Counted from the first letter of the stretch, positions 43,105-63,998 are shown. The stretch is DNA of 64,000 nt from an uncultured Gammaproteobacteria bacterium (GCA_951828235.1 OX639965.1:2970129-3034128), one strand, 5' to 3'. Notes: generated from the letters alone by a model not told the origin. Made by a program: numbers and translations.

Positions 43105-43120
43105 TGGCGTCGCGCCGCCT

Positions 43121-44209: not shown

Positions 44210-44223
44210 GGAATTCGCGCCCT

Positions 44224-46567: not shown

Positions 46568-46580
46568 GAATGCAGGCTTG

Positions 46581-48700: not shown

Positions 48701-49484
48701 GGTCCGCCGCTCAGGGATTGCAGTCTTCGCCGCGCGGGTTTTCCCCGAACTGCGTTCGATATCGCGATCGAAGCGACCTCGCCGCCTGCGCCGCCGATGC
48801 GCGCAGTTTCTGCCATCCCCCGTCGAGATACCAGGTCAGCATCAGCGAGTTTCTCGGCGACTCCCCCCCCCGGAATCCGGTCCACCCCGTGCCAGCTGCT
48901 CGGCGTGACCCCGAACGCATACCCGGTATTTGGCAAGAATGGCAGCCTCACGAGCCTCTCCAGTTCTCCGACACCGTTGCGGCGGTACAAGGAGGTACCC
49001 AAATGGATTTGGCTCAGGTCCGCTGGCAGATAGAACTGCACCGTGATGAGCTTTGGGGGATGTCCTGATGCGGTCGGATGCGGTAGCCGGGCAGATCGCG
49101 CAAAAGTGAGATGCGCAAGTTGGTCCTTGCATCCGCAGGGATGGATCTGCTGGCGATAGAGGCGGCAAGTTTCTTCGCAAAGGCATGCTTCACCAGCGGA
49201 TGCCGCAAAGCGTCCGCGACCGCCTTCCAGAAACGGCGACGGGTTCCCTCCAGCGTCCGCAGACTCTCCTCTGTCAACGGGAACTCGAGCCGAGCGCAGC
49301 TTCCGTCCGCCAAAATCGCATCTTTGTGGCGCAGTTCGGCGTAATGGGTGGCGCGCGGCAGTAGACCGATCAGTTGCCTGTAGCTTTCCTCCGCAAAGAG
49401 GCGCTTCAACACGACGTAGTTGAATGGGCGGGGATTCAGAGGCGCGGCTTGGATGGCCTGCACGATTCGCTCGGTTTCAATCAT
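48697..49484 (-). pseudogene. 2OG-Fe(II) oxygenase-like gene split by a frameshift at a G5/C5 run
   Basis: ORFs 49484-49014 (..GYRIRPHQDIPQ..) and 49041-48697 (..QFYLPAD...SWHGV..) together give the HxD...H pattern. Reading one extra C at 49055-49059 would produce ..HQDIPPKLITVQFYLPAD.. in a single frame. Confidence 0.6.
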
Positions 49485-49707
49485 CGCGTCACGGTCCAGG
49501 CCGCGAACCGAGTCCGCCTGTCCGGTTCCCCGCTATTCGACCGTTAATTCGAATTTCCATAATGCCGCACTCGCCAAAGGATGGATTCTTATACCTTGAA
49601 CGTCCAGGCAGATCAAGCAGTTTCGCCTTGCCCAGATCGGTGGGCCTGCGCTATGGTTGTTTCGCAAACCCTGAAGGGCTGCAACCCACAGACTCGAAGG
49701 AAATTCA

Positions 49708-49926
49708 ATGAAACACCGCACCAGCGAACCGAAGCACTCTCCCGCGCGCCCGGCGGGAGACGCCGTGGCGCCGCACAACTCACCCCCGCCCCCGAATTTC
49801 AAACCAAGCTGGGCACGTCCGACAATCCGGGTCCTGCCGGTAGTCACGCACACGGCGTCCGGTACGCAGCCGTACACGGGCCCCAATCTCGAGGATCAAT
49901 CAGGGCACTACGTGACCACCTCCTGA
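49708..49926 (+). CDS. Candidate lasso-type precursor peptide P (72 aa)
   Basis: AAGGA lies 6 nt upstream of the ATG. MKHRTSEPKHSPARPAGDAVAPHNSPPPPNFKPSWARPTIRVLPVVTHTASGTQPYTGPNLEDQSGHYVTTS carries the shared leader motif WxRPx(V/I)R and the TxSG junction, with a C-terminal Ser. 177 nt upstream of the PqqD-like gene. Confidence 0.65.
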   Translation: MKHRTSEPKHSPARPAGDAVAPHNSPPPPNFKPSWARPTIRVLPVVTHTASGTQPYTGPNLEDQSGHYVTTS

Positions 49927-50102: not shown

Positions 50103-50384
50103 ATGCAGGTTGAACCGGAAATGCGCGTCGCGCGCAACGACGACATCATCTTCACCGCACTCGACGATACGGTAGTCATGATGGACGTCGACAAAGGACG
50201 CTACTACGAACTCGACCCAACGGCCGCCTCCGTCTGGGCGTTGCTGGAGCGCGAATCCCTTGTGGCCAGCCTGTGCGACGCCTTGCTGGAGCGCTACGAC
50301 GTCTCCGCGGAAACCTGCCGCCGCGACTTACAGGCGTTTCTGGGCGAGCTCGCCGACCTCGGCGTCGTGCAAATCCGGGCGTGA
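50103..50384 (+). CDS. PqqD-family RiPP recognition element protein (lasso B1)
   Basis: 93 aa. ...DDTVVMMDVDKGRYYELDPTAASVWALLERESLVASLCDALLERYDVSAETCRRDLQAFLGELADLGVV is a typical PqqD/RRE winged-helix pattern. Confidence 0.85.
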   Translation: MQVEPEMRVARNDDIIFTALDDTVVMMDVDKGRYYELDPTAASVWALLERESLVASLCDALLERYDVSAETCRRDLQAFLGELADLGVVQIRA

Positions 50385-50449: not shown

Positions 50450-51271
50450 CTATGCGCCGGGCACCAGGAATTCGTATCCGAAATACTCGAAGTTGTCCCG
50501 GTGGCGCCGGAACACGCGGTTGAAGGTGTCAATCTCGGCAGCGCCGAGGCGCCCGATCTGGCGATCGTTCATGTTGGTGAGCATTTCGTTGTACCGACCC
50601 TCCTTCACCCATAGGCGCTGGCGCAGTACAAGGTCGTCGAGTTCCGGCGCCAACGCGCGGATTTTCTCTTCTACCCTTGCCGGTTCATCGCACATCTCCT
50701 CGTAGGTGAAGAACACCCCGCGTTCGCCGTGGCGCTCCAGGTTGCGGCGCTGATAGGAGAAACAGTTCGATACGTGCGTCGCCGCCAACGTGGGCAGGTC
50801 CTCGCGGTTCCCCAGGGAAGAGCCCCGCAGATTGCGGCAGATGCCCTCGCACACCGCGTACGGGTTGCGCACCATGAACAGGAACTTCGCGTTGGGAAAG
50901 TGCCGGACCAGCTCGCCGACGTAGAGCAGAAAGGGCGGGGCCTTCGTATAAAAGACCGACGCCCGGGAGTTGCGCGCGAATGCCTGGAAATACCACGCCT
51001 TGCGCGTGCGCGGCCAATCGTAGGCGCCGGGGTCGGTCAGCCGGGCAAGCCAGTCCGGCTGCGCGCTCCAGATGAGGGGGACTCTCCCCCGATTGACCGG
51101 CCCGACAAAGCCGAGCATCCTCTGACCTTCGTGCACAAGGTTCCAGGTCCCCCGGCACGTCGCCAGCGCTTCCTTGAGGAAGCTCGAACCGCTGTTGTTC
51201 GCCGCGATGCCGAATAGGTGCGTCCCCACGGCGCCCTCGACATCATGCTGGGCTCCGTATATCCGGCTCAT
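50450..51271 (-). CDS. Sulfotransferase-family protein
   Basis: Start at MSRIYGAQ (ATG 51271, 4-nt overlap with the GT8 stop). PAPS 5'-phosphosulfate-binding-like loop IAANNSGSSFL, later FMVRNPYA (3'-PB-like). Confidence 0.7.
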   Translation of the reverse strand: MSRIYGAQHDVEGAVGTHLFGIAANNSGSSFLKEALATCRGTWNLVHEGQRMLGFVGPVNRGRVPLIWSAQPDWLARLTDPGAYDWPRTRKAWYFQAFARNSRASVFYTKAPPFLLYVGELVRHFPNAKFLFMVRNPYAVCEGICRNLRGSSLGNREDLPTLAATHVSNCFSYQRRNLERHGERGVFFTYEEMCDEPARVEEKIRALAPELDDLVLRQRLWVKEGRYNEMLTNMNDRQIGRLGAAEIDTFNRVFRRHRDNFEYFGYEFLVPGA

Positions 51272-52218
51272 TCGGCTTCCCCCGGTTGCGGCGCCGCCCC
51301 TCCCGCGCCCCTTCCGGCCACCCGCGCCACGGCCCGCAGGTGGCCGCTGGCCAGACACTCCAGCCACGCCTCGTACCACAGCCCGAAAAAACGACTCGGA
51401 GGGAAACGCCCGTCTCCCATCAATTGCCACATCATCCGGTCCGGCATCCAGGGCTTGACCGCACCGGTGAAGTGCAGCACCTTCGCCTCTTCCGCACGAA
51501 TACCCTCGCGCGCCCGGATGGCGTCGACGAGGTGCGTTCGATAGTTGTAGGTTGAGCTGACCAGCGTCTGCTGGCCGGCGAAGCGCCGGTTCAGGAGAAA
51601 CTGATCGGAGTGCACCGTATCGGCGCCATGCCACGACTCCGTCGTCACCAGCTCCGCCAGTTCCGAGTACGCGCGTTCGCCCGTCAAGCGCCCGTCGATG
51701 AGCAGCACACCGCAGCTGAAAGTCCGTTCGAGCGCGCCTCCGGGACCGGCGCGCGACGGACTCTCGATTGGCCGATACGTGTCCGCATCGTGGCACCAAC
51801 CCCTCATGAACTCGGTGTCTCCGCAGCACAGCAACGACTCAGCGGAGTCGAAAAGCTCGTCGACCGGCCCGCGAAACAGGAGGTCGCAGTCACAGTAGAA
51901 AACTTTCCGGAAGCCCTCCATCCGGAAAGCCTCGAGGGAATAGAAATCCGGCAGCTTCGAGCGCATGGCCGGACGGGCCTCGCCGAGGCGGATGAGCCGC
52001 TGCTCAAGGGCGGCGCCCACCCGCTCGAAACGCAGCGGCGGAAACGCCGATTCGAGCGATTCGCGCAGTTGCCCGGGCAATCCATCATGGCAGAACACGA
52101 TGTCCCCGCCGAATCGCGGATGCTGTTTCAGGAAGGAGCCGATGCTAACAACGGCTCCCGGCAGGAAATTCTCCGTTGCCGCGAAAACGAGGCAGACATC
52201 ACTCCATCGTGCGCTCAT
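51268..52218 (-). CDS. Glycosyltransferase family 8-like (retaining GT-A)
   Basis: Start at MSARWSDVCLVFAATENF (ATG 52218, 4-nt overlap with the upstream stop). FYCDCDLLF (DxD), GVLLIDG, VLHFTGAVKPW. Confidence 0.75.
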   Translation of the reverse strand: MSARWSDVCLVFAATENFLPGAVVSIGSFLKQHPRFGGDIVFCHDGLPGQLRESLESAFPPLRFERVGAALEQRLIRLGEARPAMRSKLPDFYSLEAFRMEGFRKVFYCDCDLLFRGPVDELFDSAESLLCCGDTEFMRGWCHDADTYRPIESPSRAGPGGALERTFSCGVLLIDGRLTGERAYSELAELVTTESWHGADTVHSDQFLLNRRFAGQQTLVSSTYNYRTHLVDAIRAREGIRAEEAKVLHFTGAVKPWMPDRMMWQLMGDGRFPPSRFFGLWYEAWLECLASGHLRAVARVAGRGAGGAAPQPGEAE

Positions 52219-54158
52219 CGCGAATTCCCCCCTGCGTTGCGCCCGGCCGATCCATCCGCAAGAAACGCTTTCGCCTCGCCGAGGTAGCCGAAGCGTTCCA
52301 TGATCGGACCGTTCGCATCGATGACCGCCCGTACCTGATCCCGCGTAAGCTCGTCGCGCCATGCCCCCGCCCCGCCCGACCGGAAGAACAGGCGCGCCGT
52401 CGGCGGCTTCTCGAAGAACCCGGAACGCTTCTCCTGGGCGCGCAGGCGCTCGAAGCGGGCGCGCTCCACCGCCCGCGAAAGGCGCCCTGCCTCCGGCTCA
52501 AGGCCCGCAAAACGCAGCACCTCCTCAAAGGCGGCCGCCGGGTTCGCCAGCAGATTCTCGTAACGGGCAACGTGAACCGGCAGCTCCCCCTGGTCCAGCC
52601 AGCTCGCTACGTGGCCGCTCCAGGTGAGCAGGGGCTGCGGGAGCACATGGTGGATGCCCCCGACCGGCTGCGACAGAGCGGCGTCGGGACGACATAGTTC
52701 CGCCACGCTACGGGCGATGGACCAGTTCCAGAAGTGCGCGTTGGAAACCGCCACGTCGAGCGGGTTGCGAACGAGGTAAACCGCCCCGCAGGTCACGGAC
52801 GAAGGGAAGAGAAGGCTCCCGCCCGCGGTGCGCAGGCAGGCGTCGTGGACCTTGACGAAGGTTGGGCGCCGCAACTCGGCGGCCAGCAGTTCGTGAAGCC
52901 GCGGCCGCGCTCGCAGGATCTCGTCCGCGGTCAGGTCGGATGAGGGCAGCCCCAGCTGATCGTCGAAAACCTCGCGCTGTTGGAAGTCAAGCCTGCCCAC
53001 GAGCGCGTCGATGGAAGCCGGTCCGTCGCCGTCCTCCAGGTAGTTTGTCAGCAGCGCCCGCAGCCAGGTGTTGCCGGACCGGGGATAGGAAGCAAGCCAG
53101 ACGATGGGCCCTGCATTCCCCTCACGCAAGGCAACATGCTCCGCAACCTTCAGCCGCGGGCGGCTCTTGCCCGTCCGCCACGGCGATGCGTTCGCACCAT
53201 CGATGAGCCTTGGCCACCCGTCGCGCAGACAAGCTTCGACCTCGTCCGCCAGCGCATAGATAGGGCTGCGCCACACGGGTTGCACCAACCGGGCGACCGG
53301 CGCCCGACCCACCAGCGCCACGAGCGCCCGAAACTGGGCGCGCCCCTGTCCGAGCCCGTGCGCGTACCGCTTGCGGTAGATTCGCCCGAGCAGTTGCTCG
53401 AACGCCGCGCCGCGCGAAGGCGCATCGATCCTGAAGCCGTCCTTGTTGTGGTGCATGAGCGTGAAGACTCCGCGCACCGTGATCGGCGCCTCCCGGAAAC
53501 GCGGGGCGGGCGCCAGGTACTTCTCCATTCCTTCCCGCACCCGCCCCTGCACCCGGCTATTCCATCCCAGCGACTCCACCGCATCGGCCCACAGCCGAAG
53601 CCGTGGGTAGGCGGGCAGGGCCACGGGATGACCGCCTCCGTTCGGCACGATGCCCACCACGTCGTCGCAGAGCATCTCGTGCCCGCGGTCGAGCAGCGCC
53701 GCGAGCAGCGTGGATTTGCCGCTCCCGGAGTGGCCCGCAAACAGTACCGCGCCGGAGTCGGTGGCGATCGCACTCGCGTGCAGGGTGAGGACGCCGCGCT
53801 GCTTCAGGCACGCGGCCAGCACCGATCCGAGCAGGAAGGCGCTTACCGATGCGTCCCCGTCCCGGGCGGGTTGGACCGTGATCTCCCGCCCATCGCGGAC
53901 CAGGTAGCGGGCCACCGCGTCCACCACCATCAGGAAAACCCCGGGCGCAGCCTCCCAGGCACCGCGCCGCACCCGGGGTTTGGGCAGCGTATCCGGCACC
54001 GCGCCAATGCGGATGTCCACCTCCGTATCTGCCGTCGGGGAGGCGAGAGGAAGAGGAAGAGGAATCTCGGAGCGTATGACGAGCCCGTAGGCCGCGTAGT
54101 GGCGGGCGCCATGATCCATGGCGCTTTCCAGCGCCCGCACATTGTCCAGCCCGGTCAA
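52215..54158 (-). CDS. Fusion protein: HPr-kinase-like (HprK C-terminal domain-related) kinase plus C-terminal sulfotransferase domain
   Basis: 647 aa. N-terminal half has LHASAIATDSGAVLFAGHSGSGKSTLLAALLDRGHEMLCDDVV (HprK-like P-loop). C-terminal half has LASYPRSGNTWLRALL (sulfotransferase 5'-PSB) and YLVRNPLDVAVS (3'-PB). Confidence 0.8.
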   Translation of the reverse strand: MTGLDNVRALESAMDHGARHYAAYGLVIRSEIPLPLPLASPTADTEVDIRIGAVPDTLPKPRVRRGAWEAAPGVFLMVVDAVARYLVRDGREITVQPARDGDASVSAFLLGSVLAACLKQRGVLTLHASAIATDSGAVLFAGHSGSGKSTLLAALLDRGHEMLCDDVVGIVPNGGGHPVALPAYPRLRLWADAVESLGWNSRVQGRVREGMEKYLAPAPRFREAPITVRGVFTLMHHNKDGFRIDAPSRGAAFEQLLGRIYRKRYAHGLGQGRAQFRALVALVGRAPVARLVQPVWRSPIYALADEVEACLRDGWPRLIDGANASPWRTGKSRPRLKVAEHVALREGNAGPIVWLASYPRSGNTWLRALLTNYLEDGDGPASIDALVGRLDFQQREVFDDQLGLPSSDLTADEILRARPRLHELLAAELRRPTFVKVHDACLRTAGGSLLFPSSVTCGAVYLVRNPLDVAVSNAHFWNWSIARSVAELCRPDAALSQPVGGIHHVLPQPLLTWSGHVASWLDQGELPVHVARYENLLANPAAAFEEVLRFAGLEPEAGRLSRAVERARFERLRAQEKRSGFFEKPPTARLFFRSGGAGAWRDELTRDQVRAVIDANGPIMERFGYLGEAKAFLADGSAGRNAGGNSR

Positions 54159-54182
54159 GAGTCAGGCAGATGCCAAGGGCTA

Positions 54183-54374
54183 TCAGAAGAAAGGAAAATA
54201 GGTCGGGACGTGGTGCTCACCGCTTGGGTTCACATTTGAATCGCCACTTTCGGTGTGCTGCATTCCCATGATCCGAACGGCGGGACGGGTCCAGTGTGAT
54301 TTGCGCTGGATCGAGCGTCGTGGCGAGTTGTCAGCATACCCCCTCCCCCGCGTTTTCAGAGGAATGCGCTGCAT
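54183..54374 (-). CDS. Candidate lasso-type precursor peptide A (63 aa)
   Basis: MQRIPLKTRGRGYADNSPRRSIQRKSHWTRPAVRIMGMQHTESGDSNVNPSGEHHVPTYFPFF. Its stop lies 25 nt upstream of, and co-oriented with, the kinase-sulfotransferase gene. Shares the leader motif. In a hand alignment with the 59482 copy, 8 of 17 substitutions fall at codon position 3. Confidence 0.55.
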   Translation of the reverse strand: MQRIPLKTRGRGYADNSPRRSIQRKSHWTRPAVRIMGMQHTESGDSNVNPSGEHHVPTYFPFF

Positions 54375-54394
54375 CCGAAAACGGCACGGCCTTT

Positions 54395-55171
54395 ATGCTC
54401 GGTCGATTGTCAGACATTTCATTCACCTTGTTCCAGCAGGAAGACGCACCGTGCCAATACTACCACTCTCGCGGCTTTTCCGGCGCGGACCGCAATGCTA
54501 CACTCCGGCGCGTGGAGACGCACGAAGGACGTTCCGCTGCCCCGCCGGCGGCCGAACCCAGCGGGATCGCCCGCGTCCGGAAGCCGACCCGATTTCGTGC
54601 CCTCGGTTCGGTTGACGTGCAGGCGTTGCGGCGCCAGGTCGGGCGCCTCTCGGAGCGGGTCTGGAGGCAGGAAGACGCGATAAAGGAGAACGCCTATCGC
54701 TGCTTTGACCATACTCAGCACATCGTTTTTCGGTTCATCGAGGGCAACCGCGACCCGCGGCGGTTCTACTCGCAGCCGAGCTGGGCAGTCTGGAGTCCGA
54801 TGCTGCTCGCGGTAATGGAGCCGGCCGCGGCGCCGTACCGGTTTCAGGAGCCAGCCTTCCCCAAGGTGATGCTTGCCCGGCTCAAGCCGGGTCACGTGAT
54901 CGAACGGCACGACGATGGCGAGACCGACTGCTCGCACCCGTTCGTGCACAAAATCCATGTGCCGCTGGAGACGAATCTCGGAGCCCTGGTGCACGTGGAC
55001 GGCGAAGACCTCCACCTGGAGGTGGGACAGGCATGGGAGATCAATAACCTCGCGCGGCACGGAGCCGTGAACCGGGGACGAACGGATCGCATCCACCTTG
55101 TTTTCGAGGTCTTCGAAGGGGCGCAGGTGACGATGCCGGAAGATCGTCAACGCACAGCCGCCCGCACTTGA
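54395..55171 (+). CDS. Aspartyl/asparaginyl beta-hydroxylase-family (cupin) protein
   Basis: The ORF is open from GTG 54296; ATG 54395 is the conservative start. LARLKPGHVIERHDD...HKIHVPLETN...EVGQAWEINNLARHGAVN matches the Asp_Arg_Hydrox pattern. Confidence 0.75.
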   Translation: MLGRLSDISFTLFQQEDAPCQYYHSRGFSGADRNATLRRVETHEGRSAAPPAAEPSGIARVRKPTRFRALGSVDVQALRRQVGRLSERVWRQEDAIKENAYRCFDHTQHIVFRFIEGNRDPRRFYSQPSWAVWSPMLLAVMEPAAAPYRFQEPAFPKVMLARLKPGHVIERHDDGETDCSHPFVHKIHVPLETNLGALVHVDGEDLHLEVGQAWEINNLARHGAVNRGRTDRIHLVFEVFEGAQVTMPEDRQRTAART

Positions 55172-55241
55172 CGGACCGCCCGATGCCGCCCGCAGGCACG
55201 GCTGGCGTCCGATTTCGGCATCCGCAGGACACAAACACACC

Positions 55242-57089
55242 ATGAGCACGATCTGCGGCATCCAGGATCCTTCCGTCGCCGCCGCCCCCCAACTGGACGG
55301 CATGCTGGACGCACTGCCGGGCCGGGAGACCGACGCGCGCGCCGCGTGGGCGGGGACCTCGGCGGTCCTCGGCTGGCGGGGCCGGCCCGATGTCGGGGCC
55401 GGCGAGGCGCAGGGCGTGCCCCACTTCGACGCCGAGAGCGGACTGACGATCACCGCAAGCGTGCGCCTCGACGGGCGGAACACGCTGTGCGAGGCACTCG
55501 GCGTGCCCGGCGCGCAGCGGCACACGATCGCCGACAGCGTGCTCGTCCTCAAGGCCTACCAGCACTGGGGCCTGGAGTGTCCTCGGCATCTGCTTGGCGA
55601 CTTCGCGTTCGCGCTGTGGGATGAAAAGCGCCGGAGGCTGTTCTGCGCACGCGACCATGTGGGCGCGCGCGCCTTTTGCTATGCGTTCGCGGGGGAGCGC
55701 TTCATTTTCGCGAGCGACATCGACACGGTATTGGCCGCGCCCGGGGTCTGCGAGGAATTCGACGAGACCGTGGTCGCGACCCGCCTGACATACGGCGCCC
55801 GTCCCCTTGGGGACCGCACCTGCTACCGGTCCATCCGCCGGCTGCTCCCCGGTCATGCTCTCGTCGTCGAGCGCGGCGCGCGGCGCTTCAAGCGCTGGTG
55901 GCGTCCCGAGGAGTTGCCTGAAGTCCGGAACGCCTCCGACGACGCCATAGCGGAGGAGTGCCTGGCGATTCTGAGCGAAGCGGTGCGGGACCGCCTGCGG
56001 GGACGCAGGCCCGTTGGCGTGCACCTGAGCGGAGGCCTGGACTCGTCCAGCATCGCCGTCCTCGCGGCTCGCGAACTCGCGCGCCAGGGGAGCGCGCCCC
56101 CGGTCGCCTTCGGTTGGCATCCGCCGCCCGGCCGCGGGCCGCGGGACGCCGCGGCGGACGCCGAGTACGGACCCATCGAGGCGGTGTGCCGTCAGGAGGG
56201 CATCAACATCGTCTACCAATCTCCGCAGGCCCGCGACGTGGTCGATTTCCTGCGCCGCGACGGCACCCGCCGCGCGGACGAGGGCTCGCTGATCCACGAA
56301 CAGATCGTGCAGCGGGCCGCGGCCGCGCGGGGCGTCGGCCTGCTCCTGTCCGGGTGGGGAGGCGACGAAGGCATCTCCTTCAACGGCCGGGGCTACTACC
56401 CGCTGCTGCTGCGAACCGGCCGGCTGGGCAAGCTGTGGCGGGAACTGCGGGAGTGCAGCTCCCGCCCTCTCGCCATGCTTCTGGAGCACGCGGCGCTGCC
56501 GCTGCTCGCTCCCGGCGCGGCGCGCGCGTCAAGGCGGTTGCGCCTTGGAGAGTCGGCCTTGCGGAAAAACATCACGTTCATTCACCCGGAATTTGCGCGT
56601 CGGGCCACGCTGCTGCCCGCAAAATCCCGGCCCTCTCCGGGAGGGCGGGGCGAGCAACTGCATGTGCTCCAGCTCGGCCACCTGAGCCGGCGCATGGAGG
56701 GGTGGGCCGCCAGCGGCGCAAGCCTCGGGCTTGAGTACGCCTATCCCCTGCTGGACCGGCGGGTGCTGGAATTCGCCCTCGGCCTGCCGCCGGATCAGTA
56801 CCGGCGCGGACGCTGGAGCCGTTGGCTGATACGTCACGCGCTCGGCTCGGTCCTTCCGCCCGCGGTTCGGTGGAACCGGCAAAAACGAGATCCCGCGCGC
56901 TACGAGCCGGCACTCGACGCCCTCGCGGAGGCGCTGCCGGTGGTGCGCGGGATGATCGCGGAACGACCGCCGCCACGGGGCCGCTACCTGGACCTGCCGC
57001 GCCTGTTGGAGCAGATGGAACCGAAACGCTGGCGCGACGGCGGAAGGTATGGGCCGGTCCTGAACGCCTTGCGTTTCCTGGATTTTTAA
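55242..57089 (+). CDS. Asparagine synthetase-like lasso peptide cyclase (lasso C)
   Basis: 615 aa. N-terminal MSTICGI (Ntn-type Cys), PP-loop HLSGGLDSSSIA, and AsnB-like architecture, next to RRE/B2/ABC genes. Confidence 0.9.
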   Translation: MSTICGIQDPSVAAAPQLDGMLDALPGRETDARAAWAGTSAVLGWRGRPDVGAGEAQGVPHFDAESGLTITASVRLDGRNTLCEALGVPGAQRHTIADSVLVLKAYQHWGLECPRHLLGDFAFALWDEKRRRLFCARDHVGARAFCYAFAGERFIFASDIDTVLAAPGVCEEFDETVVATRLTYGARPLGDRTCYRSIRRLLPGHALVVERGARRFKRWWRPEELPEVRNASDDAIAEECLAILSEAVRDRLRGRRPVGVHLSGGLDSSSIAVLAARELARQGSAPPVAFGWHPPPGRGPRDAAADAEYGPIEAVCRQEGINIVYQSPQARDVVDFLRRDGTRRADEGSLIHEQIVQRAAAARGVGLLLSGWGGDEGISFNGRGYYPLLLRTGRLGKLWRELRECSSRPLAMLLEHAALPLLAPGAARASRRLRLGESALRKNITFIHPEFARRATLLPAKSRPSPGGRGEQLHVLQLGHLSRRMEGWAASGASLGLEYAYPLLDRRVLEFALGLPPDQYRRGRWSRWLIRHALGSVLPPAVRWNRQKRDPARYEPALDALAEALPVVRGMIAERPPPRGRYLDLPRLLEQMEPKRWRDGGRYGPVLNALRFLDF

Positions 57090-57178
57090 TCTTGTATGAC
57101 CGCTGCTGCCCTTGCCTCAAGCCTCTTGTATACTTCCCTTGGACCGACGGTAGTTGCAGCAAGTCAGAGGCGATTGGA

Positions 57179-57403
57179 ATGAACGACACTCCACATAACG
57201 CAGGGAAGGCGGTGCCTTCCGGTACTGCGAAGTACCCCAGATTGGGGGGGCAAGACTCACCCGGCCGTAAAGAGCACCGAGGCGACAGGCTACCGTGGTC
57301 TCGCCCCGCGGTGCGCGTAATGACAGGAGTCCGATCAACCAAGAGCGGACCAGAGGCTAACAATCCATCTGTGGAGAACGAATTTTATCGACCAACATCT
57401 TGA
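57179..57403 (+). CDS. Candidate lasso-type precursor peptide C (74 aa)
   Basis: AGAGG lies 8 nt upstream of the ATG. MNDTPHNAGKAVPSGTAKYPRLGGQDSPGRKEHRGDRLPWSRPAVRVMTGVRSTKSGPEANNPSVENEFYRPTS. Lies between the cyclase and the ABC exporter. Has the leader motif, the TKSG junction and a C-terminal Ser. Confidence 0.7.
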   Translation: MNDTPHNAGKAVPSGTAKYPRLGGQDSPGRKEHRGDRLPWSRPAVRVMTGVRSTKSGPEANNPSVENEFYRPTS

Positions 57404-57655
57404 CCCTGCACAGACGACATAAGCACATAACACGGCAGAACAGGCTCTCTTGAACGCGCGCCATCGTCCAGGGCATTGCTATAGGGCGTGATTCAATTCT
57501 CCCTGTTCGCCTCGGCATTGCCATCGCGCCAGCGCATTGTTACGGTAGCCGCAGGTTCCCTGCCTGATTTCCGCGAGGCAATTGACACCGATTCAGATTT
57601 TGCCTGCCTCCGCGCCGGTGTCACGCACCACTGAAACCCGGACCCGGCTGGCGCC

Positions 57656-59491
57656 ATGACGGCGCAACCCACGCCCCAGAACCCCACAATGCCCCGCTCG
57701 GCCGAAGGCGCGTTTCGCGGCGCCGGCGCCCTCGTCGCCGAACTGCTCGCCCGAGCGCCCGGCCTTTCCGCGCTTGCGCTCGCGCTGCTCCTGACCGCGG
57801 CCGTGACAGAGGCGTTCGGCCTTGCGTTGATCGTTCCCCTGCTGTACGTCACGGGTCTTGCCGAATCCTCCGGCAACCGTCCCCCCGTAGTGGACGCCGT
57901 CGCCGCCGCCGCCGAACGCATCGGCCTGGAACTCACGCTGCCGTCGGTTCTCGCCATCTTTCTGGCGCTGGCTGCCGTGCGTGTCGCCGCCGCATGGCAG
58001 CGGCAGCAGGTCCTGGCCCGCCTCGCGCACGGATTCGAGGACCGGCTTCGCGGCGATCTATACGCCGCGACGGCTTCGGCGAAGTGGTCCCACCTGATCC
58101 GCTGGCGCCGCTCCGACATCCACCATGCGCTGACTCGGGAAATTCGCCGCGCCGGGAGCAGCGTCAACCTGCTCTGTCAGCTCGCCGCAGGCTCAGTGCT
58201 TGCACTGGCCCAGTTTGCCGTCGCCGTCGCGATCGACCCGCTGGTCTCGCTCGGCGCGTTGGTCGCCGGCGCCGCACTGGCGTTCCTGACGGTCCCGCTG
58301 GCTTCGCGCTCCTCGCGCCGCGGCACGCAGTTGACGCGGCGCAACGAGGCGCTGCACGCCCTGGTGTCGGACTTCCTGGCCGGTCTCAGGCTCGTCAAGA
58401 GCCACAACGCCGAAGGGCGCCACCTCGGGGACTTCACGGCCGCGGCGCGCGCGACCCGGCAAAGCGAGCTGGCGTCCCGGGCCACGCTCGCCGCCGCGCG
58501 CGCCGTCATGGACCTGGGCGCGGCATGTACGCTGGCCGCCCTGGCCTACGCGGCGATCATCTTTTCCGGCCTGGCTCTGCCCGAACTGCTCGTTCTGGTG
58601 CTGGTCTTCGCCCGCCTGATACCGTCCCTCTCGCGCCTGCAGCAGTTCGCCCAGCAGCTGGCCCAGCAATTGCCGGCCTACGCGCACGCCACCGGCATGA
58701 TCCGCCGGTTGCGCCGGGGCGCCGAGCCGATCCCGAAGGAAAGCCGCTTCCCGCTGCGCCTGCGCGACGCCCTGAACGTGTCCGGCCTTTCGTTCGCTTA
58801 CCCATCCTCGCCCGAAACCCCGGTCCTGACGGACGTGAACCTGTGCGTTCCGACCGGCCGATTCGTCGCCGTCATGGGTCCGTCGGGCGTCGGCAAAAGC
58901 ACGTTCGCAGACCTTCTTTTCGGCCTCCTGGAGCCCTGCCGCGGCGAGATCGCGATCGACGGCGCGCCGTTGACGCCTGCCAACGCGCGGCGCTGGCGCG
59001 ATTCGGCCGCCTACGTCCCCCAGGAGCCCTACCTGTTTCACGAATCCATCCGCGCCAACATGCTCAGAGCCAACCCGAAGGCTTCCGGCGCCGAACTTGA
59101 ACGGTCGCTCTCCCTCGCCGACGCCCGCCGCTTCGTCGATGCCCTGCCCCGGGGACTCGACACGGTGGTCGGTGATCGCGGCGCCCGCCTTTCGAGCGGC
59201 GAGCGCCAGCGCATCGCGATCGCTCAGGCGTTGCTCCGGAACCCGGCGCTGCTACTGCTCGACGAACCCACCGCAAATCTGGACGCCGCCTCGGAGCGCC
59301 GGATCGTGGCGACGCTGGCCTCCCTGTGCCCACGCGTCACGGTCGTGACCATGACCCACCGGCCGGAGCCCGCCAAGCACGCGGACAACATCGTCCTGCT
59401 ACGATCCGGCCGCGTTGCCGCCACCGGACGCTGGAGTGAACTCGAAGCCGCGCTCGAGGGTCCGCTAGATGCCAAGGGCGATCAGGAGTAA
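57656..59491 (+). CDS. ABC transporter, fused permease/ATPase (lasso D-type exporter)
   Basis: 611 aa. 6 TM helices, then Walker A GPSGVGKST, signature LSSGERQRIAIA, Walker B LLLLDEP. Confidence 0.9.
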   Translation: MTAQPTPQNPTMPRSAEGAFRGAGALVAELLARAPGLSALALALLLTAAVTEAFGLALIVPLLYVTGLAESSGNRPPVVDAVAAAAERIGLELTLPSVLAIFLALAAVRVAAAWQRQQVLARLAHGFEDRLRGDLYAATASAKWSHLIRWRRSDIHHALTREIRRAGSSVNLLCQLAAGSVLALAQFAVAVAIDPLVSLGALVAGAALAFLTVPLASRSSRRGTQLTRRNEALHALVSDFLAGLRLVKSHNAEGRHLGDFTAAARATRQSELASRATLAAARAVMDLGAACTLAALAYAAIIFSGLALPELLVLVLVFARLIPSLSRLQQFAQQLAQQLPAYAHATGMIRRLRRGAEPIPKESRFPLRLRDALNVSGLSFAYPSSPETPVLTDVNLCVPTGRFVAVMGPSGVGKSTFADLLFGLLEPCRGEIAIDGAPLTPANARRWRDSAAYVPQEPYLFHESIRANMLRANPKASGAELERSLSLADARRFVDALPRGLDTVVGDRGARLSSGERQRIAIAQALLRNPALLLLDEPTANLDAASERRIVATLASLCPRVTVVTMTHRPEPAKHADNIVLLRSGRVAATGRWSELEAALEGPLDAKGDQE

Positions 59492-59637
59492 GGAAAATAG
59501 GTGGGGACGTGGTGCTCACCGCTTGGGTTCACGTCCGGATCGCCACTTTCAGTGCGCTCCATTGCCATGACCCGGACCGTGGGGCGAGTCCAGTGTGATT
59601 TGCGCGGGGCTGCGCGTCGTAGCGAGTTGTCAGCAAT
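59482..59637 (-). CDS. Precursor-like coding segment B1 (paralog of peptide A); start codon unresolved
   Basis: ..IADNSLRRAAPRKSHWTRPTVRVMAMERTESGDPDVNPSGEHHVPTYFPYS, stop at 59482. No ATG/GTG/TTG lies between the G14 tract and the leader motif. Only the frame through the G14 tract (TTG 59769) is open. The A-like upstream frame (GTG at about 59686) would need 13 or 16 G. Confidence 0.45.
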   Translation of the reverse strand: MADNSLRRAAPRKSHWTRPTVRVMAMERTESGDPDVNPSGEHHVPTYFPYS

Positions 59638-59834
59638 CCCCCCCCCCCCCCAATTTCCAGGGAATGCGCTGGTGGATGCGCCACACCGAAGGACACCGTA
59701 AAGAGCACCCAGGCGACAGGCTACCGTGGTCCCGCCCCGCCGTGCGTTTTTTGGAAGGAGTCCGATCAACCGCGACCGGACCAGAATTCTATAGGGTAGA
59801 GAATACGCCTCACTATGGACCTACTGCGTCTTAG
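59595..59834 (+). CDS. Candidate lasso-type precursor peptide B2 (79 aa from GTG 59595; alternative ATG 59664 or 59676)
   Basis: MICAGLRVVASCQQSPPPPNFQGMRWWMRHTEGHRKEHPGDRLPWSRPAVRFLEGVRSTATGPEFYRVENTPHYGPTAS. Shares GRKEHxGDRLPWSRPAVR with peptide C and SPPPPNF with peptide P. Gly-to-Glu spacing of 8 and a C-terminal Ser. Confidence 0.6.
   Translation: MICAGLRVVASCQQSPPPPNFQGMRWWMRHTEGHRKEHPGDRLPWSRPAVRFLEGVRSTATGPEFYRVENTPHYGPTAS
59638..59651. repeat. Homopolymer C14 (G14 on the minus strand)
   Basis: Read directly: ...cagcaat cccccccccccccc aatttcc. Lies in the overlap of the 5' regions of the divergent ORFs B1(-) and B2(+). Confidence 0.95.
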
Positions 59835-59871
59835 CCCGATGCGGCTCGCGTAAATGCCGAGGAGCCAAGGC

Positions 59872-61188
59872 TCATGGGCGTACTGGGCATTTCGGCTTCT
59901 CTTTCGCATCCCCCGCAACCTGCAGACGTCCCGTACCGCCCCGGCGCGTTGTAGCTTGGCCGGAGCGTTTCCTGTTGCGCTCCAGCCTGCTGGCCAGCCA
60001 CAGGATCGGGCGCAGCGGCAGGTAGAGGAAGAACAGCCGATCAGGCAAATCCACCCTCCCCAAATCGTACGGCGCTACGCAAAGCCGGGCCAACTCGTGC
60101 GCCGCGCTGCGCCAGGACGGGTTCATCGCCTGACCGAGCCACAATTCGTCCATCCGTCGATCGAGGCCCTCAAGCCCTTTGCCGCCGTGCGGCCGGTTCC
60201 AGAGACGGCGAGTCGAGCGCATTGCGCGGCCGGCCCAGGCGCCCGGCGGCGGAAAAGCCGCAGGCGGGTCCACATGGAACATTTCCGAACACAGGAGAAG
60301 AGCCGCTCCGAACGCGGGCTCCAGCCGCAGTCCCTCGCGCCTGCACCGCTCGACGGCCGCAACGAGGTGGTCCTCGTCCATGGAAGCGAGCAGCGCAGCC
60401 ATGTCGCAAAGCCACTTCAGCCGGCTCCAGCGATGAAGCTGGCCGTGGATGGCCAGGTAGACCATCAGGTCGCCGTCGCCCAGGGAGGCGAAGGCTTGGC
60501 CGCCGATCTCGACGCTGACCGTGCTGGCGCTCAGCGTTTCAAAGGACGCGCGCAACAGGAACGGGTTGTTGACCAGGCGATGGTGCAGTTCCAGCTTGCC
60601 GTGGGGGCCGATAAAGAGGCGGTCCTTGACAAACCGGTCGTAGTGGCGGATGCGGGCCGGAGTCGGGTGAAATGACGGCTTGACAAGGCGCCAGCCACCC
60701 GACGCCAGAGCTTGGGCAGCCTCCGCGGCCTGCTCCCGCGGGACCAGCAGGTCAATGTCGATACAGTCCCTTGCAAGCGGCGTGCCGAACAACCGCATGC
60801 TCAGCGGCAGGCCCTTGAGCACCAGCGACGGAATACCGCTTGCGGCCAGACGATCCGTAGCCTCACGCAGGTCCGCGAGCTGCCGCAACCCTCGTCTCAT
60901 CCTGTGCTGTCGGAAGGGCTCCAGTGCAGCTTGCGCGTCGGGACTCGGGTCCGCGACGGCGCTCACGCCGCGGAGCAACAGCGAACCGACCCGGTGGCGC
61001 CTGGCGAGAGCGGCTACGGCGTTCCAGTCGGCGACGCCGTCGAGCGCCGCGGTATCCGCCTCCCGTGTGCCGACGCCCATGCCAAGGCGCAGCCCGGCAA
61101 GAAGGCCCGCGAACGGCGGCGTTCGAGCGCTGCGTGCGTTCCGCCGCTGCGCCGCCGCCGATGTTCCCATCAGGCCTTTCGGCATCAT
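59872..61188 (-). CDS. Uncharacterised nucleotidyltransferase-family protein (PF14907-like)
   Basis: 438 aa. ...LVLKGLPLSMRLFGTPLARDCIDIDLLVP... (GS/DxD nucleotidyltransferase-fold motif). 4-nt overlap with the upstream B2 gene. Confidence 0.7.
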   Translation of the reverse strand: MMPKGLMGTSAAAQRRNARSARTPPFAGLLAGLRLGMGVGTREADTAALDGVADWNAVAALARRHRVGSLLLRGVSAVADPSPDAQAALEPFRQHRMRRGLRQLADLREATDRLAASGIPSLVLKGLPLSMRLFGTPLARDCIDIDLLVPREQAAEAAQALASGGWRLVKPSFHPTPARIRHYDRFVKDRLFIGPHGKLELHHRLVNNPFLLRASFETLSASTVSVEIGGQAFASLGDGDLMVYLAIHGQLHRWSRLKWLCDMAALLASMDEDHLVAAVERCRREGLRLEPAFGAALLLCSEMFHVDPPAAFPPPGAWAGRAMRSTRRLWNRPHGGKGLEGLDRRMDELWLGQAMNPSWRSAAHELARLCVAPYDLGRVDLPDRLFFLYLPLRPILWLASRLERNRKRSGQATTRRGGTGRLQVAGDAKEKPKCPVRP

Positions 61189-61844
61189 GGCGATCTGGTC
61201 GACGAACGTCCCGGTTCGTCACCGTTGGGATACAGTGGCGACAGTGGAACGTAGGTGTCAAGTTCCCCGCCCCCGATGACGCACTGCCCGGCGACCATCA
61301 GCCAGGCGTGGTACTCGAGAGTCCGCTCCGGCGTTCGGCCTCGCCGCGCGCCGAAGACAAGACGGCTCGGGATACTCCGCCGGCGCAGCATCCATTGCGC
61401 CGCCATGGCCTGCGGCAGACAAAGCGCCTGGAACGGCAGGCGGCGGGCCACCTTGCGGACGACGCGCGCCATCTTTCGGGGGATACGCAGTCTCGCTGCC
61501 GCGCGCCGCTCTTCGTCGGCGCGTTCAGCCGGCCGCTCATCCGCGCCCGGGAGCATAGTGGAGCGCCGTTGCCTGGGCGATTCGGCGCGTTCGGGACAGG
61601 GCGAAGACTCCGGCACCATATCAAGACGACGGCGCCAGAACCGCATCGGCACATGCGCGACAAGCAGTCGCGCCAGCAGCAGGGTGAACGCCGCTTCCAG
61701 CGCCAGCGCCTGCGTTGCGGCCGGCAGGCGCAGAAAACTGCGAAGTCCGTTGACGGACGACGAAGCCCCGCGCTTTGCTGCGGCAAGCCGGCCCGCCCGC
61801 CGTCCCTGTTTCTTCATTTCGTCCTCGCCCACCACCTGCGCCAA
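61185..61844 (-). CDS. Lasso peptide biosynthesis B2 protein (transglutaminase-like cysteine protease, PF13471-like)
   Basis: 219 aa. ...LPFQALCLPQAMAAQWMLRRRSIPSRLVFGARRG....LEYHAWLMVAGQCVIGG gives the Cys...His pattern and the overall signature of leader peptidases of split-B lasso clusters. Confidence 0.85.
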   Translation of the reverse strand: MAQVVGEDEMKKQGRRAGRLAAAKRGASSSVNGLRSFLRLPAATQALALEAAFTLLLARLLVAHVPMRFWRRRLDMVPESSPCPERAESPRQRRSTMLPGADERPAERADEERRAAARLRIPRKMARVVRKVARRLPFQALCLPQAMAAQWMLRRRSIPSRLVFGARRGRTPERTLEYHAWLMVAGQCVIGGGELDTYVPLSPLYPNGDEPGRSSTRSP

Positions 61845-62058: not shown

Positions 62059-62658
62059 TTACAAGAATCGCTCGGTGACCCTTACGACGTCGCCCGGCAG
62101 CACCTCATCGGTAACCGGTATAGGGCGTTCCGCGCGCGTGTCGTCGGTTGCGCGAATAATCATTACGCGGTTTGTGCGGGCCCGGTAGGTAAAGCCGCCG
62201 CCCAGCGCCACCGCTTCCCTAACGGTCATGCCGCTGACGTAGGGGTAGGGGCCGGGGTTGTTCACCTCGCCGATGATGTAGAAGGGCCGGTACTCCAGCA
62301 CCTCGACGCTGACCCTGGGATTCAGCAGGTAGTCGGGCTTGAGCGCCTCCACGACCATTTCCTGCGCTTCGCTGACTGTTGCTCCGCTAAAATCCAGCAC
62401 GCCAACCAGGGGCATGGCGATGGTACCGTTTTCACTGACCAGGAACTCTCCGCTCAGATCCTCGTGGCCAAAAACCGTGACGCGGATTCGGTCGCCGTGA
62501 CCGAGCACGTATTCTGATGCGGGCGCCTCGGAGGGCGTCTGATCCGTAGCGATCGCTTCGAACGAGTACGCCATTGCGATGCAAATAACTGCGGCGATGC
62601 TGAAACAACGCCGGTTTGCGGGAGTGCTGGTGGAGGGGCACGTCCGCGGCAAGCTCAT
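62059..62658 (-). CDS. Polysaccharide export protein (Wza/GumB/EpsA-like; Poly_export plus SLBB)
   Basis: 199 aa. YVLGHGDRIRVTVFGHEDLSGEFLVSENGTIAMPLVG and RPFYIIGEVNNPGPYPY. Confidence 0.85.
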   Translation of the reverse strand: MSLPRTCPSTSTPANRRCFSIAAVICIAMAYSFEAIATDQTPSEAPASEYVLGHGDRIRVTVFGHEDLSGEFLVSENGTIAMPLVGVLDFSGATVSEAQEMVVEALKPDYLLNPRVSVEVLEYRPFYIIGEVNNPGPYPYVSGMTVREAVALGGGFTYRARTNRVMIIRATDDTRAERPIPVTDEVLPGDVVRVTERFL

Positions 62659-63998
62659 AGGCTGAGCCGGACGTCCAAGAAAACGTAGTTCTTGGCGTAG
62701 TCGTCCCGCCGAACCGTTGAGTCCCTGCGCTGCCCCCGATAGCCGAAATTGGCGCTAACGGTCCTGTTGAACTTCCACGTTACCCAAATCGTGCTGGTCA
62801 CGATGTCGTCTTCGCGCTCGATTCCCTCGTAGCTGTTGGTGGTCACGCTCATATCGGCGCCAATCAGCACGTTGCGGCGCAATTCATGGTCCAGTCCGAT
62901 CTCCCAGGTTGACGAAAGATAGCCGGAAGCCTGCCGCAGCGCGGATTCGTTCACCGTGCGGCTCACCGCGCCCCGCACGGTGGTCAGCGGCGTAACGTTC
63001 CATGTCAGCACGCCACCGTATCCCAGCCCGTCCACGTCAGGAAGCCTTTCGTCCCGATCGTAAGACTGGCTGCGGTAACCGGCGAACACTTCGACCGCCA
63101 GCACCGCGCCGAGCTCCAGCCGTGAGCCAAGCACCGCTTCCGTGCCGTCGGAATCCCTCAGGTACCTATCCTCGCCCTGCGGGCGGTCGTACCGGCGGCT
63201 GTACCGTGTCGCGCGCAGGTACATCTCACTGGCGGACGCCACCTTCCAGCCCAGCCGCGCCGAAACCTCGCGCTCCGCCCGGTCACGGTCGTTCTGTACA
63301 AGCGGCCGGCCCGTGACGCTATCGACCGTATCATCGAACGCCACGTCCGTATAGCTGCCCTCCAGACCCACTGTCAGGCGGTTCATGCGCCGGAAGGCCT
63401 CCACCTGAACGCCCGACATCCGCCTCGACACGGGCCGCAGCGCAGTGGCGGGGGACTCCGGGTCGCCGCGTTCCTCGTGCAGTTCGCGCATGTTCACTTG
63501 GGCGCGCACCCAGGTATCGCGCCCAATATCGAACCTTCCCCCGGCGCCCAGGAACCAGTTCCTGACATCTTCATCGTCCGCTTCCTCGAAGGAACTCGCG
63601 TCAAGCCCTGCATCCAGCTCGATTTCGTGGCGGCTCCACCGCGAAACGCCGAAGATTCGCGGACGCGCGGCGCGCACGATGTCGCGCGTCGGCGCCTCGC
63701 GCAGCCTGTAGATGTTGTCGTCGTTGGCAAGGCCGAGTTCCACGGACGGAAACACCAGGAAGCCGCCAACGCCGATTCCGGCGGCATCCCAGTCCGGCCT
63801 GGGCCGGTTCGCGACAGTCATTTGCGATGCGCCGCCGTCCTCTTGCGCCATTGCGACCGGCGCCGGCAGGGCAGCGAGGATCAGCATTGCCCAGACCAGC
63901 CGCCTAAAGCTGCACAATGGATTCAGGATTATGCTCCGCCGGTGCTGCGCAAGGTGTACGGGTAAAGTCATTTCGCCCCCGCACACAAAAAAATTCAT
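62655..63998 (-). CDS. Outer-membrane beta-barrel protein associated with EPS loci (start uncertain)
   Basis: 447 aa ORF. Signal-like MLILAALPAPVAMAQ, alternating beta-strand pattern throughout, terminal ...YVFLDVRLSL. 4-nt overlap with the Wza-like gene. Confidence 0.6.
   Translation of the reverse strand: MNFFVCGGEMTLPVHLAQHRRSIILNPLCSFRRLVWAMLILAALPAPVAMAQEDGGASQMTVANRPRPDWDAAGIGVGGFLVFPSVELGLANDDNIYRLREAPTRDIVRAARPRIFGVSRWSRHEIELDAGLDASSFEEADDEDVRNWFLGAGGRFDIGRDTWVRAQVNMRELHEERGDPESPATALRPVSRRMSGVQVEAFRRMNRLTVGLEGSYTDVAFDDTVDSVTGRPLVQNDRDRAEREVSARLGWKVASASEMYLRATRYSRRYDRPQGEDRYLRDSDGTEAVLGSRLELGAVLAVEVFAGYRSQSYDRDERLPDVDGLGYGGVLTWNVTPLTTVRGAVSRTVNESALRQASGYLSSTWEIGLDHELRRNVLIGADMSVTTNSYEGIEREDDIVTSTIWVTWKFNRTVSANFGYRGQRRDSTVRRDDYAKNYVFLDVRLSL

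Follow-up and report, generated by a model that had tools for sequence, protein, structure and literature searches.

What is a kinase joined to a sulfotransferase doing in a lasso-peptide gene cluster? The question is raised by a 64,000-nucleotide stretch of DNA from an uncultured Gammaproteobacteria bacterium (GCA_951828235.1 OX639965.1:2970129-3034128; here called the window), in which a gene for such a fusion (52215..54158, minus strand) lies within a complete split-B lasso-peptide cluster at 49.7-61.8 kb. The cluster is a variant of the lasso family in which the C-terminal Ser is phosphorylated. It is probably a split-B, class II-type cluster of the C-terminal-Ser (paeninodin/SyanA) kind, in which the bifunctional fusion carries out both phosphorylation of that Ser and O-sulfation of the peptide tail. 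This reading is carried by the identities of the two domains, the intact catalytic motifs in both halves, the lasso-specific co-occurrence of the gene, its repeated independent fusion and the conservation of the C-terminal Ser in the precursors.

The fusion was described in the initial annotation as a protein of 647 amino acids combining an HprK-related kinase with a sulfotransferase. The two domains are borne out by domain hidden Markov models (HMMs), motifs and structural models, with the N-terminal half scoring below the HMM thresholds. The length needs correction, as translation most likely begins at the ATG at 54119 to give 634 amino acids: GGAAAG lies 6 nt upstream of this codon, homologues begin there and residues 1-15 have a predicted local distance difference test score (pLDDT) below 50. 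The kinase domain, of HprK/phosphoenolpyruvate carboxykinase (PEPCK) fold, covers approximately residues 17-320 and is followed by a disordered linker (322-341) and by a sulfotransferase domain of the type that uses 3'-phosphoadenosine 5'-phosphosulfate (PAPS; 350-635). The full-length AlphaFold2 (AF2) model (pLDDT 88, predicted TM-score 0.87) consists of two compact domains and the disordered linker.

The C-terminal half is an intact PAPS-type sulfotransferase, with its activity predicted. Sulfotransfer_1 (PF00685) matches residues 353-621 with an E-value of 1.6e-21 and 77 bits against a gathering score of 22. The 5'-phosphosulfate-binding motif YPRSGNTW (358-365), the catalytic H438, the 3'-phosphate-binding R464-x-P-x-D...S472 and the motif FFRSGGAGAW (591-600) are invariant or at least 90% kept in 23-65 homologues, and among fusion homologues the first and last of these take the family-wide forms YP[KR]SG.TW and FFR.G..G.W. 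The closest relatives in the PDB are Teg12, Teg14 and StaL, both by sequence (Teg12, 2.7e-13) and by Foldseek (3mgb, 9.8e-11), with the SULTs also matching. The acceptors of Teg12, StaL and the SULTs are hydroxyls of phenols or alcohols. Teg12, Teg14 and StaL (PDB 3mgb, 3nib, 4eec), whose substrates are peptide natural products, resemble the C-terminal half in their PAPS-binding motifs and catalytic His, but they share only 19-24% identity with it, are stand-alone proteins and act on non-ribosomal glycopeptide aglycones.

The N-terminal half is more divergent. Hpr_kinase_C (PF07475) matches residues 127-170 with 22 bits, below its gathering score of 33.3, and the NCBIfam models HprK_rel_A (6e-9; 35 bits against 200), HprK_rel_B (5e-8) and ScmC (7e-5) all fall far under their cut-offs. 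The domain is assigned to the HprK family because of its motif spacing, its PEPCK-fold model and the precomputed PF27840 (ScmC) and PF07475 matches of its close homologues. The motif reads H127-x14-G142-x2-G145-x-G147-K148-S149-x15-D165-D166, with spacing identical to that of H148, G163, G166, G168, K169, S170, D186 and D187 in BsfK, residues that mutagenesis has found to be essential in lasso-peptide kinases (PMC10368454). The likeness to the kinases PadeK, ThcoK and SyanK is drawn solely through this BsfK motif. The HprK catalytic domain is a member of the PEPCK fold superfamily, and the AF2 model of residues 1-330 (pLDDT 91.6) matches PEP carboxykinases in Foldseek with an E-value of 7.6e-9 and a query-normalised TM-score of about 0.5. 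The model has a PEPCK/HprK-like fold with an N-terminal beta-rich lobe.

A P-loop domain next to a sulfotransferase could also be read as a local source of PAPS, resembling adenosine 5'-phosphosulfate (APS) kinase and not acting on the peptide at all. Its GHSGSGKST is indeed like the P-loop of APS kinases, and the fusion of donor synthesis to a transferase follows a common logic. However, the domain has no match to the APS_kinase family, its best families being HprK_rel_A/B, ScmC and Hpr_kinase_C; its His...Asp-Asp motif is exactly that of the peptide kinases; the beta-rich lobe and fold are those described above; and stand-alone homologues in lasso clusters are reported in the literature to phosphorylate peptides. 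With family matches, motif and fold all HprK-like, the APS-kinase reading of the P-loop was rejected as extremely unlikely.

The fusion is far from rare. The architecture had been thought unusual, an opinion overturned by a word-indexed search that returned 115 homologue clusters, mainly full-length and with 40-98% identity, nearly all of which are metagenome proteins. An exhaustive search of 50%-identity representatives gave about 30 proteins of fusion length among the best 150 matches, some with the sulfotransferase ahead of the kinase, and a metagenome scan gave more than 527 relatives. The proteins of the window were compared with 86 loci by tblastn, and the counts that follow refer to the 38 fusion loci that are 5 kb or longer. 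In 35 of these 38 the fusion is accompanied by a cyclase, B1 or B2 gene, whereas no lasso gene is found in any of 21 loci that hold a sulfotransferase alone. Individually, the cyclase is found in 30 fusion loci, B1 in 29, the ATP-binding cassette (ABC) exporter in 18, the PF14907 protein in 16 and B2 in 12. The fusion thus represents an uncharacterised but widespread family, encoded almost only beside lasso genes, whose bifunctional tailoring role is predicted from sequence.

Polysaccharide genes lie on both flanks of the cluster, at 41842-48700 and 62059-63998, encoding Wzx, GT4, formyltransferase, epimerase, sugar transferase, Wzy_C, Metallophos, Poly_export and BBP2_2 proteins, and it might be that the fusion, the glycosyltransferase and the sulfotransferases of the window serve this pathway, making a sulfated or phosphorylated exopolysaccharide, and stand beside lasso genes by chance. 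Some of the same families recur elsewhere: Wzy_C and Metallophos lie within the lasso cluster of locus L002 (14176-15528, 20276-21037), and Poly_export, BBP2_2 and Wzz lie beside that of L005 (1-2165). Across the family, however, Wzy_C, Metallophos, Poly_export and BBP2_2 are each found with the fusion in just 2 of the 38 loci, against 30 for the cyclase and 29 for B1. Moreover, the operon in the window begins with a precursor gene, and the glycosyltransferase and second sulfotransferase lie inside lasso operons in two other loci. In L003 they run in the order PqqD-GT8-ST-fusion-ABC, chained by 4-nt overlaps straight after PqqD, and in L021 the GT8 gene sits between the cyclase and PF14907 genes. 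The contrast between 35 of 38 and 2 of 38 loci places the tailoring genes in the lasso pathway, as the initial annotation had proposed, and a role in polysaccharide synthesis has very little probability.

The two domains have been joined more than once. The reverse order, sulfotransferase first and kinase second, is found in L006 (10001-12052), L032, P0240, P0241 and P0243, implying that the domains fused independently more than once. Stand-alone kinases with 40-62% identity to the N-terminal half are abundant, and in the loci examined they adjoin a stand-alone Sulfotransfer_1 gene, as in L087 (B2-kinase-ST...cyclase-precursor-PqqD) and L088 (kinase-hydroxylase-ST, with no cyclase, B1 or B2 within 9 kb). 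A second cluster in L003 (13853-21878), beside the first lasso cluster, carries an unfused ScmC-like kinase and two Sulfotransfer_1 genes; it also holds a GPP34+P450 fusion protein and two near-identical precursors ending ...PPPPES. The repeated fusion of neighbouring genes in both orders argues, by Rosetta-stone logic, that kinase and sulfotransferase act together.

How they might do so is suggested by one branch of fusions (P0048, P0051, P0059, P0072) in which Arg stands in place of the catalytic His and Val, Ala or Asn in place of the second Asp, with the sulfotransferase motifs remaining invariant. In the two such loci examined, L089 (9054-11938) and L090 (8529-12079), the gene immediately upstream of the fusion encodes a separate kinase that retains His and Asp-Asp, and in L089 the two genes overlap by 4 nt. 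The fused N-terminal domain of this pseudokinase subclade is probably a docking module. Because the fusions of these two loci are accompanied by an intact kinase, the fused domain would appear to have a docking role as well, which suggests that binding of the peptide tail by the kinase domain is what the sulfotransferase exploits, even where that domain is catalytic, as in the window.

The likely target of the kinase is visible in the precursors. Five precursor genes are found in the window: P (49708..49926, plus strand; leader ending WARPTIRVLPVVTHTA, core SGTQPYTGPNLEDQSGHYVTTS at 49861-49926; profile E-value 5e-14), A (54183..54374, minus strand; core SGDSNVNPSGEHHVPTYFPFF at 54183-54248), C (57242..57403, plus strand, with a TTG start; core SGPEANNPSVENEFYRPTS at 57344-57403), B1 (59482..59637, minus strand, a paralogue of A; core SGDPDVNPSGEHHVPTYFPYS at 59482-59547) and B2 (59664..59834, plus strand, a paralogue of C; core TGPEFYRVENTPHYGPTAS). 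The leader W-x-R-P-x-[VI]-R-[VIF]-[LM]-x4/5-T-x, followed by S-G or T-G, is common to all five, which match the leader profile with E-values of 1e-13 to 1e-17, the five being among the sequences from which the profile was built. They are real paralogues and not chance open reading frames (ORFs). The same leader is found in small ORFs beside homologous enzymes in unrelated metagenomes, where in low-GC cases it directly follows an obvious start (MKKEW...).

An iterated profile search gave 30 precursors in fusion loci, to which one was added by hand from the unfused-kinase locus L087; removal of near-identical copies (three from a metagenome-assembled genome (MAG) closely related to the window and one L003 duplicate) left 27. 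The spacing from Trp to Thr in the leader is 13-14 residues in 26 of the 27 and 15 in the other. The C-termini in the window had been given as TTS (P), PFF (A), PTS (C), PYS (B1) and TAS (B2), and are so; the match proposed there between a C-terminal Ser and the kinase extends to the whole family, with 22 of the 27 precursors associated with fusion loci ending in Ser. A tail Tyr occurs in every window core and in 21 of the 27 overall. Among the fusion-linked precursors, no hydroxyl candidate other than the C-terminal Ser region comes near to being universal. In L034 (2988-3523), three tandem precursors beside the fusion end in F, V and D, with T-S four residues before the end (..TSYVPF, ..TSLEPV, ..TSLEMD), a pattern that may reflect C-terminal trimming or an internal target.

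Characterised lasso systems give these features a context. In linear precursors the C-terminal Ser is phosphorylated, and also polyphosphorylated, by PadeK, ThcoK and SyanK, to which the remaining sequence matters little, and PsmN, a PF14907 protein, adds hexose to the phosphate of the phospho-Ser (PMC8498205, PMC9266682). Paeninodin-type systems with a phosphorylated C-terminal Ser resemble the window in their split B1 and B2, their Ser-ending precursors, their W-x-x-P-x-[VI]-x-[VI]-[LM]...T-x leader and their H...G..G.GKS...DD kinase motif, whereas the window differs in the fusion of its kinase to Sulfotransfer_1, in its five precursors, in its Gemmatimonadota-like host and in the addition of a GT8 glycosyltransferase, a second sulfotransferase and an AspH-like hydroxylase (PMC8498205, PMC9266682). 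The pseudomycoidin cluster (Zyubko et al. 2019, via PMC8498205) likewise has a kinase, PsmK, together with the PF14907 protein PsmN next to B2, and its product carries a phospho-Ser with one or two hexoses; PsmK is, however, a stand-alone protein, and no sulfotransferase, GT8 or hydroxylase is mentioned for this cluster in the literature consulted. BsfK of Bradymonas sediminis shares with the window its catalytic motif, dependence on B1 and a PF14907 gene in the cluster, but there the phosphorylated residue is the ring Ser3, Asp is the last residue of the precursor, position -2 of the leader is Ile and no sulfotransferase is present (PMC10368454). Oxygenase tailoring of a linear lasso precursor, the role predicted for the hydroxylase of the window, is known from CanE of canucin A, which is an Fe/2OG hydroxylase acting on a C-terminal Asp (PMC8498205), whereas the enzyme of the window is a cupin of the PF05118 AspH family.

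The pairing of the two activities has been seen before. Genome mining in 2014 and 2016 turned up an HPr kinase together with a sulfotransferase in some lasso clusters from anaerobes and Firmicutes, with a role described as unclear (PMC4289311; Zhu 2016c via PMC8498205). These clusters hold the same enzyme pair with lasso genes as the window, but as separate uncharacterised genes, and the fused form, the two domain orders and the pseudokinase subclade go unmentioned. No sulfated lasso peptide and, in agreement with the initial annotation, no kinase-sulfotransferase fusion was found in the searchable full-text literature, which includes reviews to mid-2026 and leaves subscription-only papers outside; sulfation is absent from the list of lasso modifications given by a 2026 review.

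Taken together with the gene content of the window, the following pathway can be proposed, in which every chemical step, the order of the steps and the sulfate acceptor are inferred. A single set of B1, B2, C and D would serve all five precursor genes. The fusion would work on the linear, leader-bearing precursor as presented by the PqqD-like B1, its kinase domain phosphorylating the C-terminal Ser and its PAPS-dependent sulfotransferase domain transferring sulfate to a hydroxyl in the same tail. That one kinase could handle five dissimilar cores fits with lasso kinases largely ignoring the rest of the peptide. The likeliest acceptor in the clade of the window is the conserved tail Tyr, a phenol being favoured because the relatives of the domain are Teg12/StaL-like; failing that, sulfate may go to a Ser/Thr or to the region of the phospho-Ser, a sugar or a beta-hydroxy residue being further candidates. 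In the lineage of the window a hexose is probably added to the phosphate by the PF14907 enzyme, as PsmN does, and the GT8 protein and second sulfotransferase may extend and sulfate that glycan or another hydroxyl, with the AspH-like enzyme hydroxylating a core residue. Finally, B2 would cleave after the conserved T-x, C would close the ring and D would export the product. The phospho, sulfo, glycosyl and hydroxy decorations of the peptides are thus predicted.

The sulfate may instead be directed to the very residue that the kinase modifies. Both domains would then converge on the same C-terminal Ser, with sulfation either as an alternative to phosphate, giving mixed products, or of the phosphate itself, giving a Ser-O-phosphosulfate. 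The near-universal hydroxyl of the C-terminal Ser (22 of 27), set beside the lack of Tyr in six precursors, speaks for such a convergence, as does the tight physical coupling that has been selected repeatedly in both domain orders. The separate kinase upstream in the two pseudokinase loci fits a fused domain that holds the (phospho)Ser for the sulfotransferase, and ThcoK and SyanK already use phosphate as a nucleophile when they polyphosphorylate. On the other hand, the nearest structural relatives, Teg12, StaL and the SULTs, transfer their sulfate to phenolic or alcoholic hydroxyls, no sulfotransferase is known to form a phosphosulfate on a peptide, and the L034 precursors, which have a fusion beside them, end in F, V or D with their T-S internal. 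Convergence on one Ser is therefore possible but unlikely. The bolder proposal, that phosphorylation and sulfation are chemically coupled on that Ser by a fused or docked kinase-like domain that holds the phospho-Ser for the sulfotransferase to place sulfate on it or next to it (for example as Ser-O-phosphosulfate), on peptides with rings of possibly 10-12 residues, is distinctly unlikely; if true, the coupled Ser modification would be a post-translational modification without precedent, and the rings would be larger than any described.

Families were called with Pfam and NCBIfam and ORFs assessed by their third-position GC (GC3). Each element listed in the initial annotation was recovered in place, and the lasso genes form a complete set of a PqqD/B1 protein, B2, an Asn-synthetase-like cyclase, an ABC exporter and the five precursors. 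The region is a genuine lasso-peptide gene cluster. B1, the PqqD-like recognition element for peptides that are ribosomally synthesised and then modified after translation (RiPPs), is encoded at 50103..50384 (plus strand) and matches PF05402 (2.7e-21; 76 bits against a gathering score of 23.4) and lasso_PqqD_Bac (1.2e-16). The cyclase, C (55242..57089, plus strand), matches lass_lactam_cya (1.1e-96; 325 bits, under the strict 525-bit cut-off), PF00733 and GATase_7. The exporter, D (57656..59491, plus strand), has PF00005 and PF00664 domains. The transglutaminase-like leader peptidase, B2 (61185..61844, minus strand), matches lasso_biosyn_B2 (73 bits; cut-off 33) and PF13471. The window encodes a single cyclase, B1, B2 and kinase domain each; the cyclase has no paralogue, and the sole kinase domain is that of the fusion. 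The region has a GC content of about 65%. A scan for promoters and terminators gave nothing exceeding shuffle expectation.

The fusion is part of a minus-strand operon with precursor A, the GT8 gene (51268..52218) and the Sulfotransfer_3 gene (50450..51271). This operon had been described as coupled, with 4-nt overlaps. The overlaps hold for the fusion/GT8 and GT8/second-sulfotransferase junctions, where each is an ATGA, and not for precursor A, which with the fusion starting at 54119 lies 63 nt upstream without overlap. The other tailoring genes that had been named, including the glycosyltransferase with its DxD motif, are likewise all present. The GT8 protein matches PF01501 (5.9e-17; 62.5 bits against a gathering score of 24.3), has the DCD motif and is nearest by sequence to glycogenin among solved structures (1.3e-4). 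The second sulfotransferase matches PF13469 (2e-11) and has weak PDB sequence matches to CurM ST and TPST1. The PF14907 nucleotidyltransferase (59872..61188, minus strand) matches its family with 1.6e-46 and 159 bits against a gathering score of 31.2, belongs to the same Pfam family as the characterised PsmN and is coupled to the leader peptidase, the stop of B2 and the start of the PF14907 gene overlapping by 4 nt.

The hydroxylase, an Asp/Asn beta-hydroxylase-family cupin protein (54395..55171, plus strand), matches PF05118 (3.6e-11; 43.6 bits against a gathering score of 22.6) and gave no match to solved structures. In an alignment with seven homologues its His-x-Asp...His iron triad (H172-x-D174...H222) and R232 are invariant, and the first approximately 60 amino acids of the ORF are not conserved. 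It adjoins or lies near the fusion in L002, L004, L005 (with a 4-nt overlap), L006, L009 and L021. The initial annotation had linked this enzyme to the Asn/Asp-rich cores, a link that found no backing, there being no conserved Asn or Asp position behind it. A residue conserved solely in the precursors of hydroxylase-containing loci was looked for and none was found: Tyr occurs in 13 of 13 such precursors, but also in 8 of 14 others. The tailoring set of the window, rich as had been claimed, is not general: among the 38 fusion loci PF14907 is found in 16, GT8 in 5, the second sulfotransferase in 6 and the hydroxylase in 8. The last three genes, which several contigs are too short to show, mark a sub-lineage, mainly of closer relatives, and not the whole fusion family.

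The cores themselves raise a question of ring size. If the leader is cut after the conserved T-x, no acidic residue follows core position 6 until E11 in A, B1 and C, E12 in P and E9 in B2, such that B2 alone of the five window cores has an Asp or Glu at positions 7-9; across the family, 10 of 27 precursors lack one there. For the four window cores, either the rings would comprise 10-12 residues, or cleavage takes place at a shifted site, or the peptides are not substrates. If such cores really do cyclise, the accepted rule of 7-9-residue rings would need revision.

Comparison with a 98%-identical MAG contig (L001, Gemmatimonadetes bacterium 277c_38), whose enzymes are 97-99% identical at the protein level, reveals how the precursors are changing. 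The core of precursor C has diverged by 13% at the nucleotide level (L001 6296-6595) against about 1% in the flanking genes, SGPEANNPSVENEFYRPTS in the window corresponding to SGPDELTPAVENEFYRPTS in the MAG; the frame and the ...YRPTS end are kept and the ring region is hypervariable. Such a pattern is what a diversifying RiPP core would be expected to show. The end of precursor A is PFF (TTC, 54183-54191) in the window and PFS (TCC) in the MAG (L001 9329-9502), a single C-to-T change. The segment 59510-59867, with the divergently transcribed precursor genes B1 and B2, is missing from the MAG, which has an unrelated 209 bp (L001 3999-4208) in its place, indicating a recent gain or loss of this pair. 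Between B1 and B2 lies a 14-nt C homopolymer (59638-59651; G on the minus strand), in which a change of length could alter expression or reading frame.

The start codons of precursors A and B1 are doubtful. P has an alternative GTG start at 49765, after GGGAG. In B1 (59600-59640) and the MAG copy of A (L001 9329-9400) no in-frame ATG, GTG or TTG lies between a G-rich, Shine-Dalgarno-like run and the conserved Trp, and in the A gene of the window (54300-54345) the only in-frame ATG, at 54374, is upstream of the G-run. An ATG or TTG in the +1 frame follows the G-run by 1-2 nt in B1, window A and MAG A, and a search for a programmed frameshift in A and B1 revealed no slippery site. Outside the lasso genes, the minus-strand region 48697-49484 contains two overlapping ORFs in different frames (49014-49484 and 48697-49041; 156 and 114 amino acids) that resemble one gene split by a frame change. 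Pfam gave no match for either, and the idea of a split oxygenase-like gene is unsupported. Window positions 49228-49514 have no counterpart in the MAG.

Such features could mean decay of the cluster or of the majority of its precursor genes, with at most one product and a largely silent tailoring set. The loss of the C-terminal Ser from precursor A, the missing canonical starts of B1 and of the MAG copy of A, the four cores without an acidic residue at 7-9 and the split ORF would all be in keeping with decay. The enzyme genes are nevertheless all intact, with GC3 values of 0.75-0.85 and the close protein identity to the MAG noted above; the leader motif is kept at the protein level in all five precursors; and the divergence of precursor C, with frame and C-terminus preserved, has the look of diversification. 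Decay is accordingly very unlikely.

Several points nonetheless weigh against the proposal that the fusion phosphorylates the terminal Ser and sulfates the tail. The Hpr_kinase_C and HprK_rel_A/B scores of the N-terminal half are sub-threshold. BsfK, a related lasso kinase, targets the core Ser3 and not the C-terminus (PMC10368454), and the site of modification can therefore not be read from homology alone. Precursor A has no terminal Ser, the expected kinase target having been lost through one base change, and as 6 of 27 cores lack Tyr despite the presence of the fusion, Tyr is not a universal sulfate acceptor. Because four of the five window cores have no Asp or Glu at 7-9 and the start codons of A and B1 are doubtful, it may be that not all five precursors are processed. 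The further enzymes assigned to the pathway (PF14907, GT8, second sulfotransferase and hydroxylase) were found in just 16, 5, 6 and 8 of the 38 fusion loci.

For the lasso peptides as a class, the fusion family points to a modification, sulfation, that has hitherto not been reported, and it singles out lasso clusters with Ser-terminated precursors that are numerous, broadly spread across phylogeny and uncharacterised. The loose co-occurrence of kinase and sulfotransferase noted since 2014-2016 is thereby turned into a testable hypothesis, in which a single enzyme would use two cofactors on a short peptide. A possible route from catalytic domain to substrate-docking module is hinted at by the pseudokinase subclade, and the charged sulfate may offer a new handle for lasso-peptide engineering.

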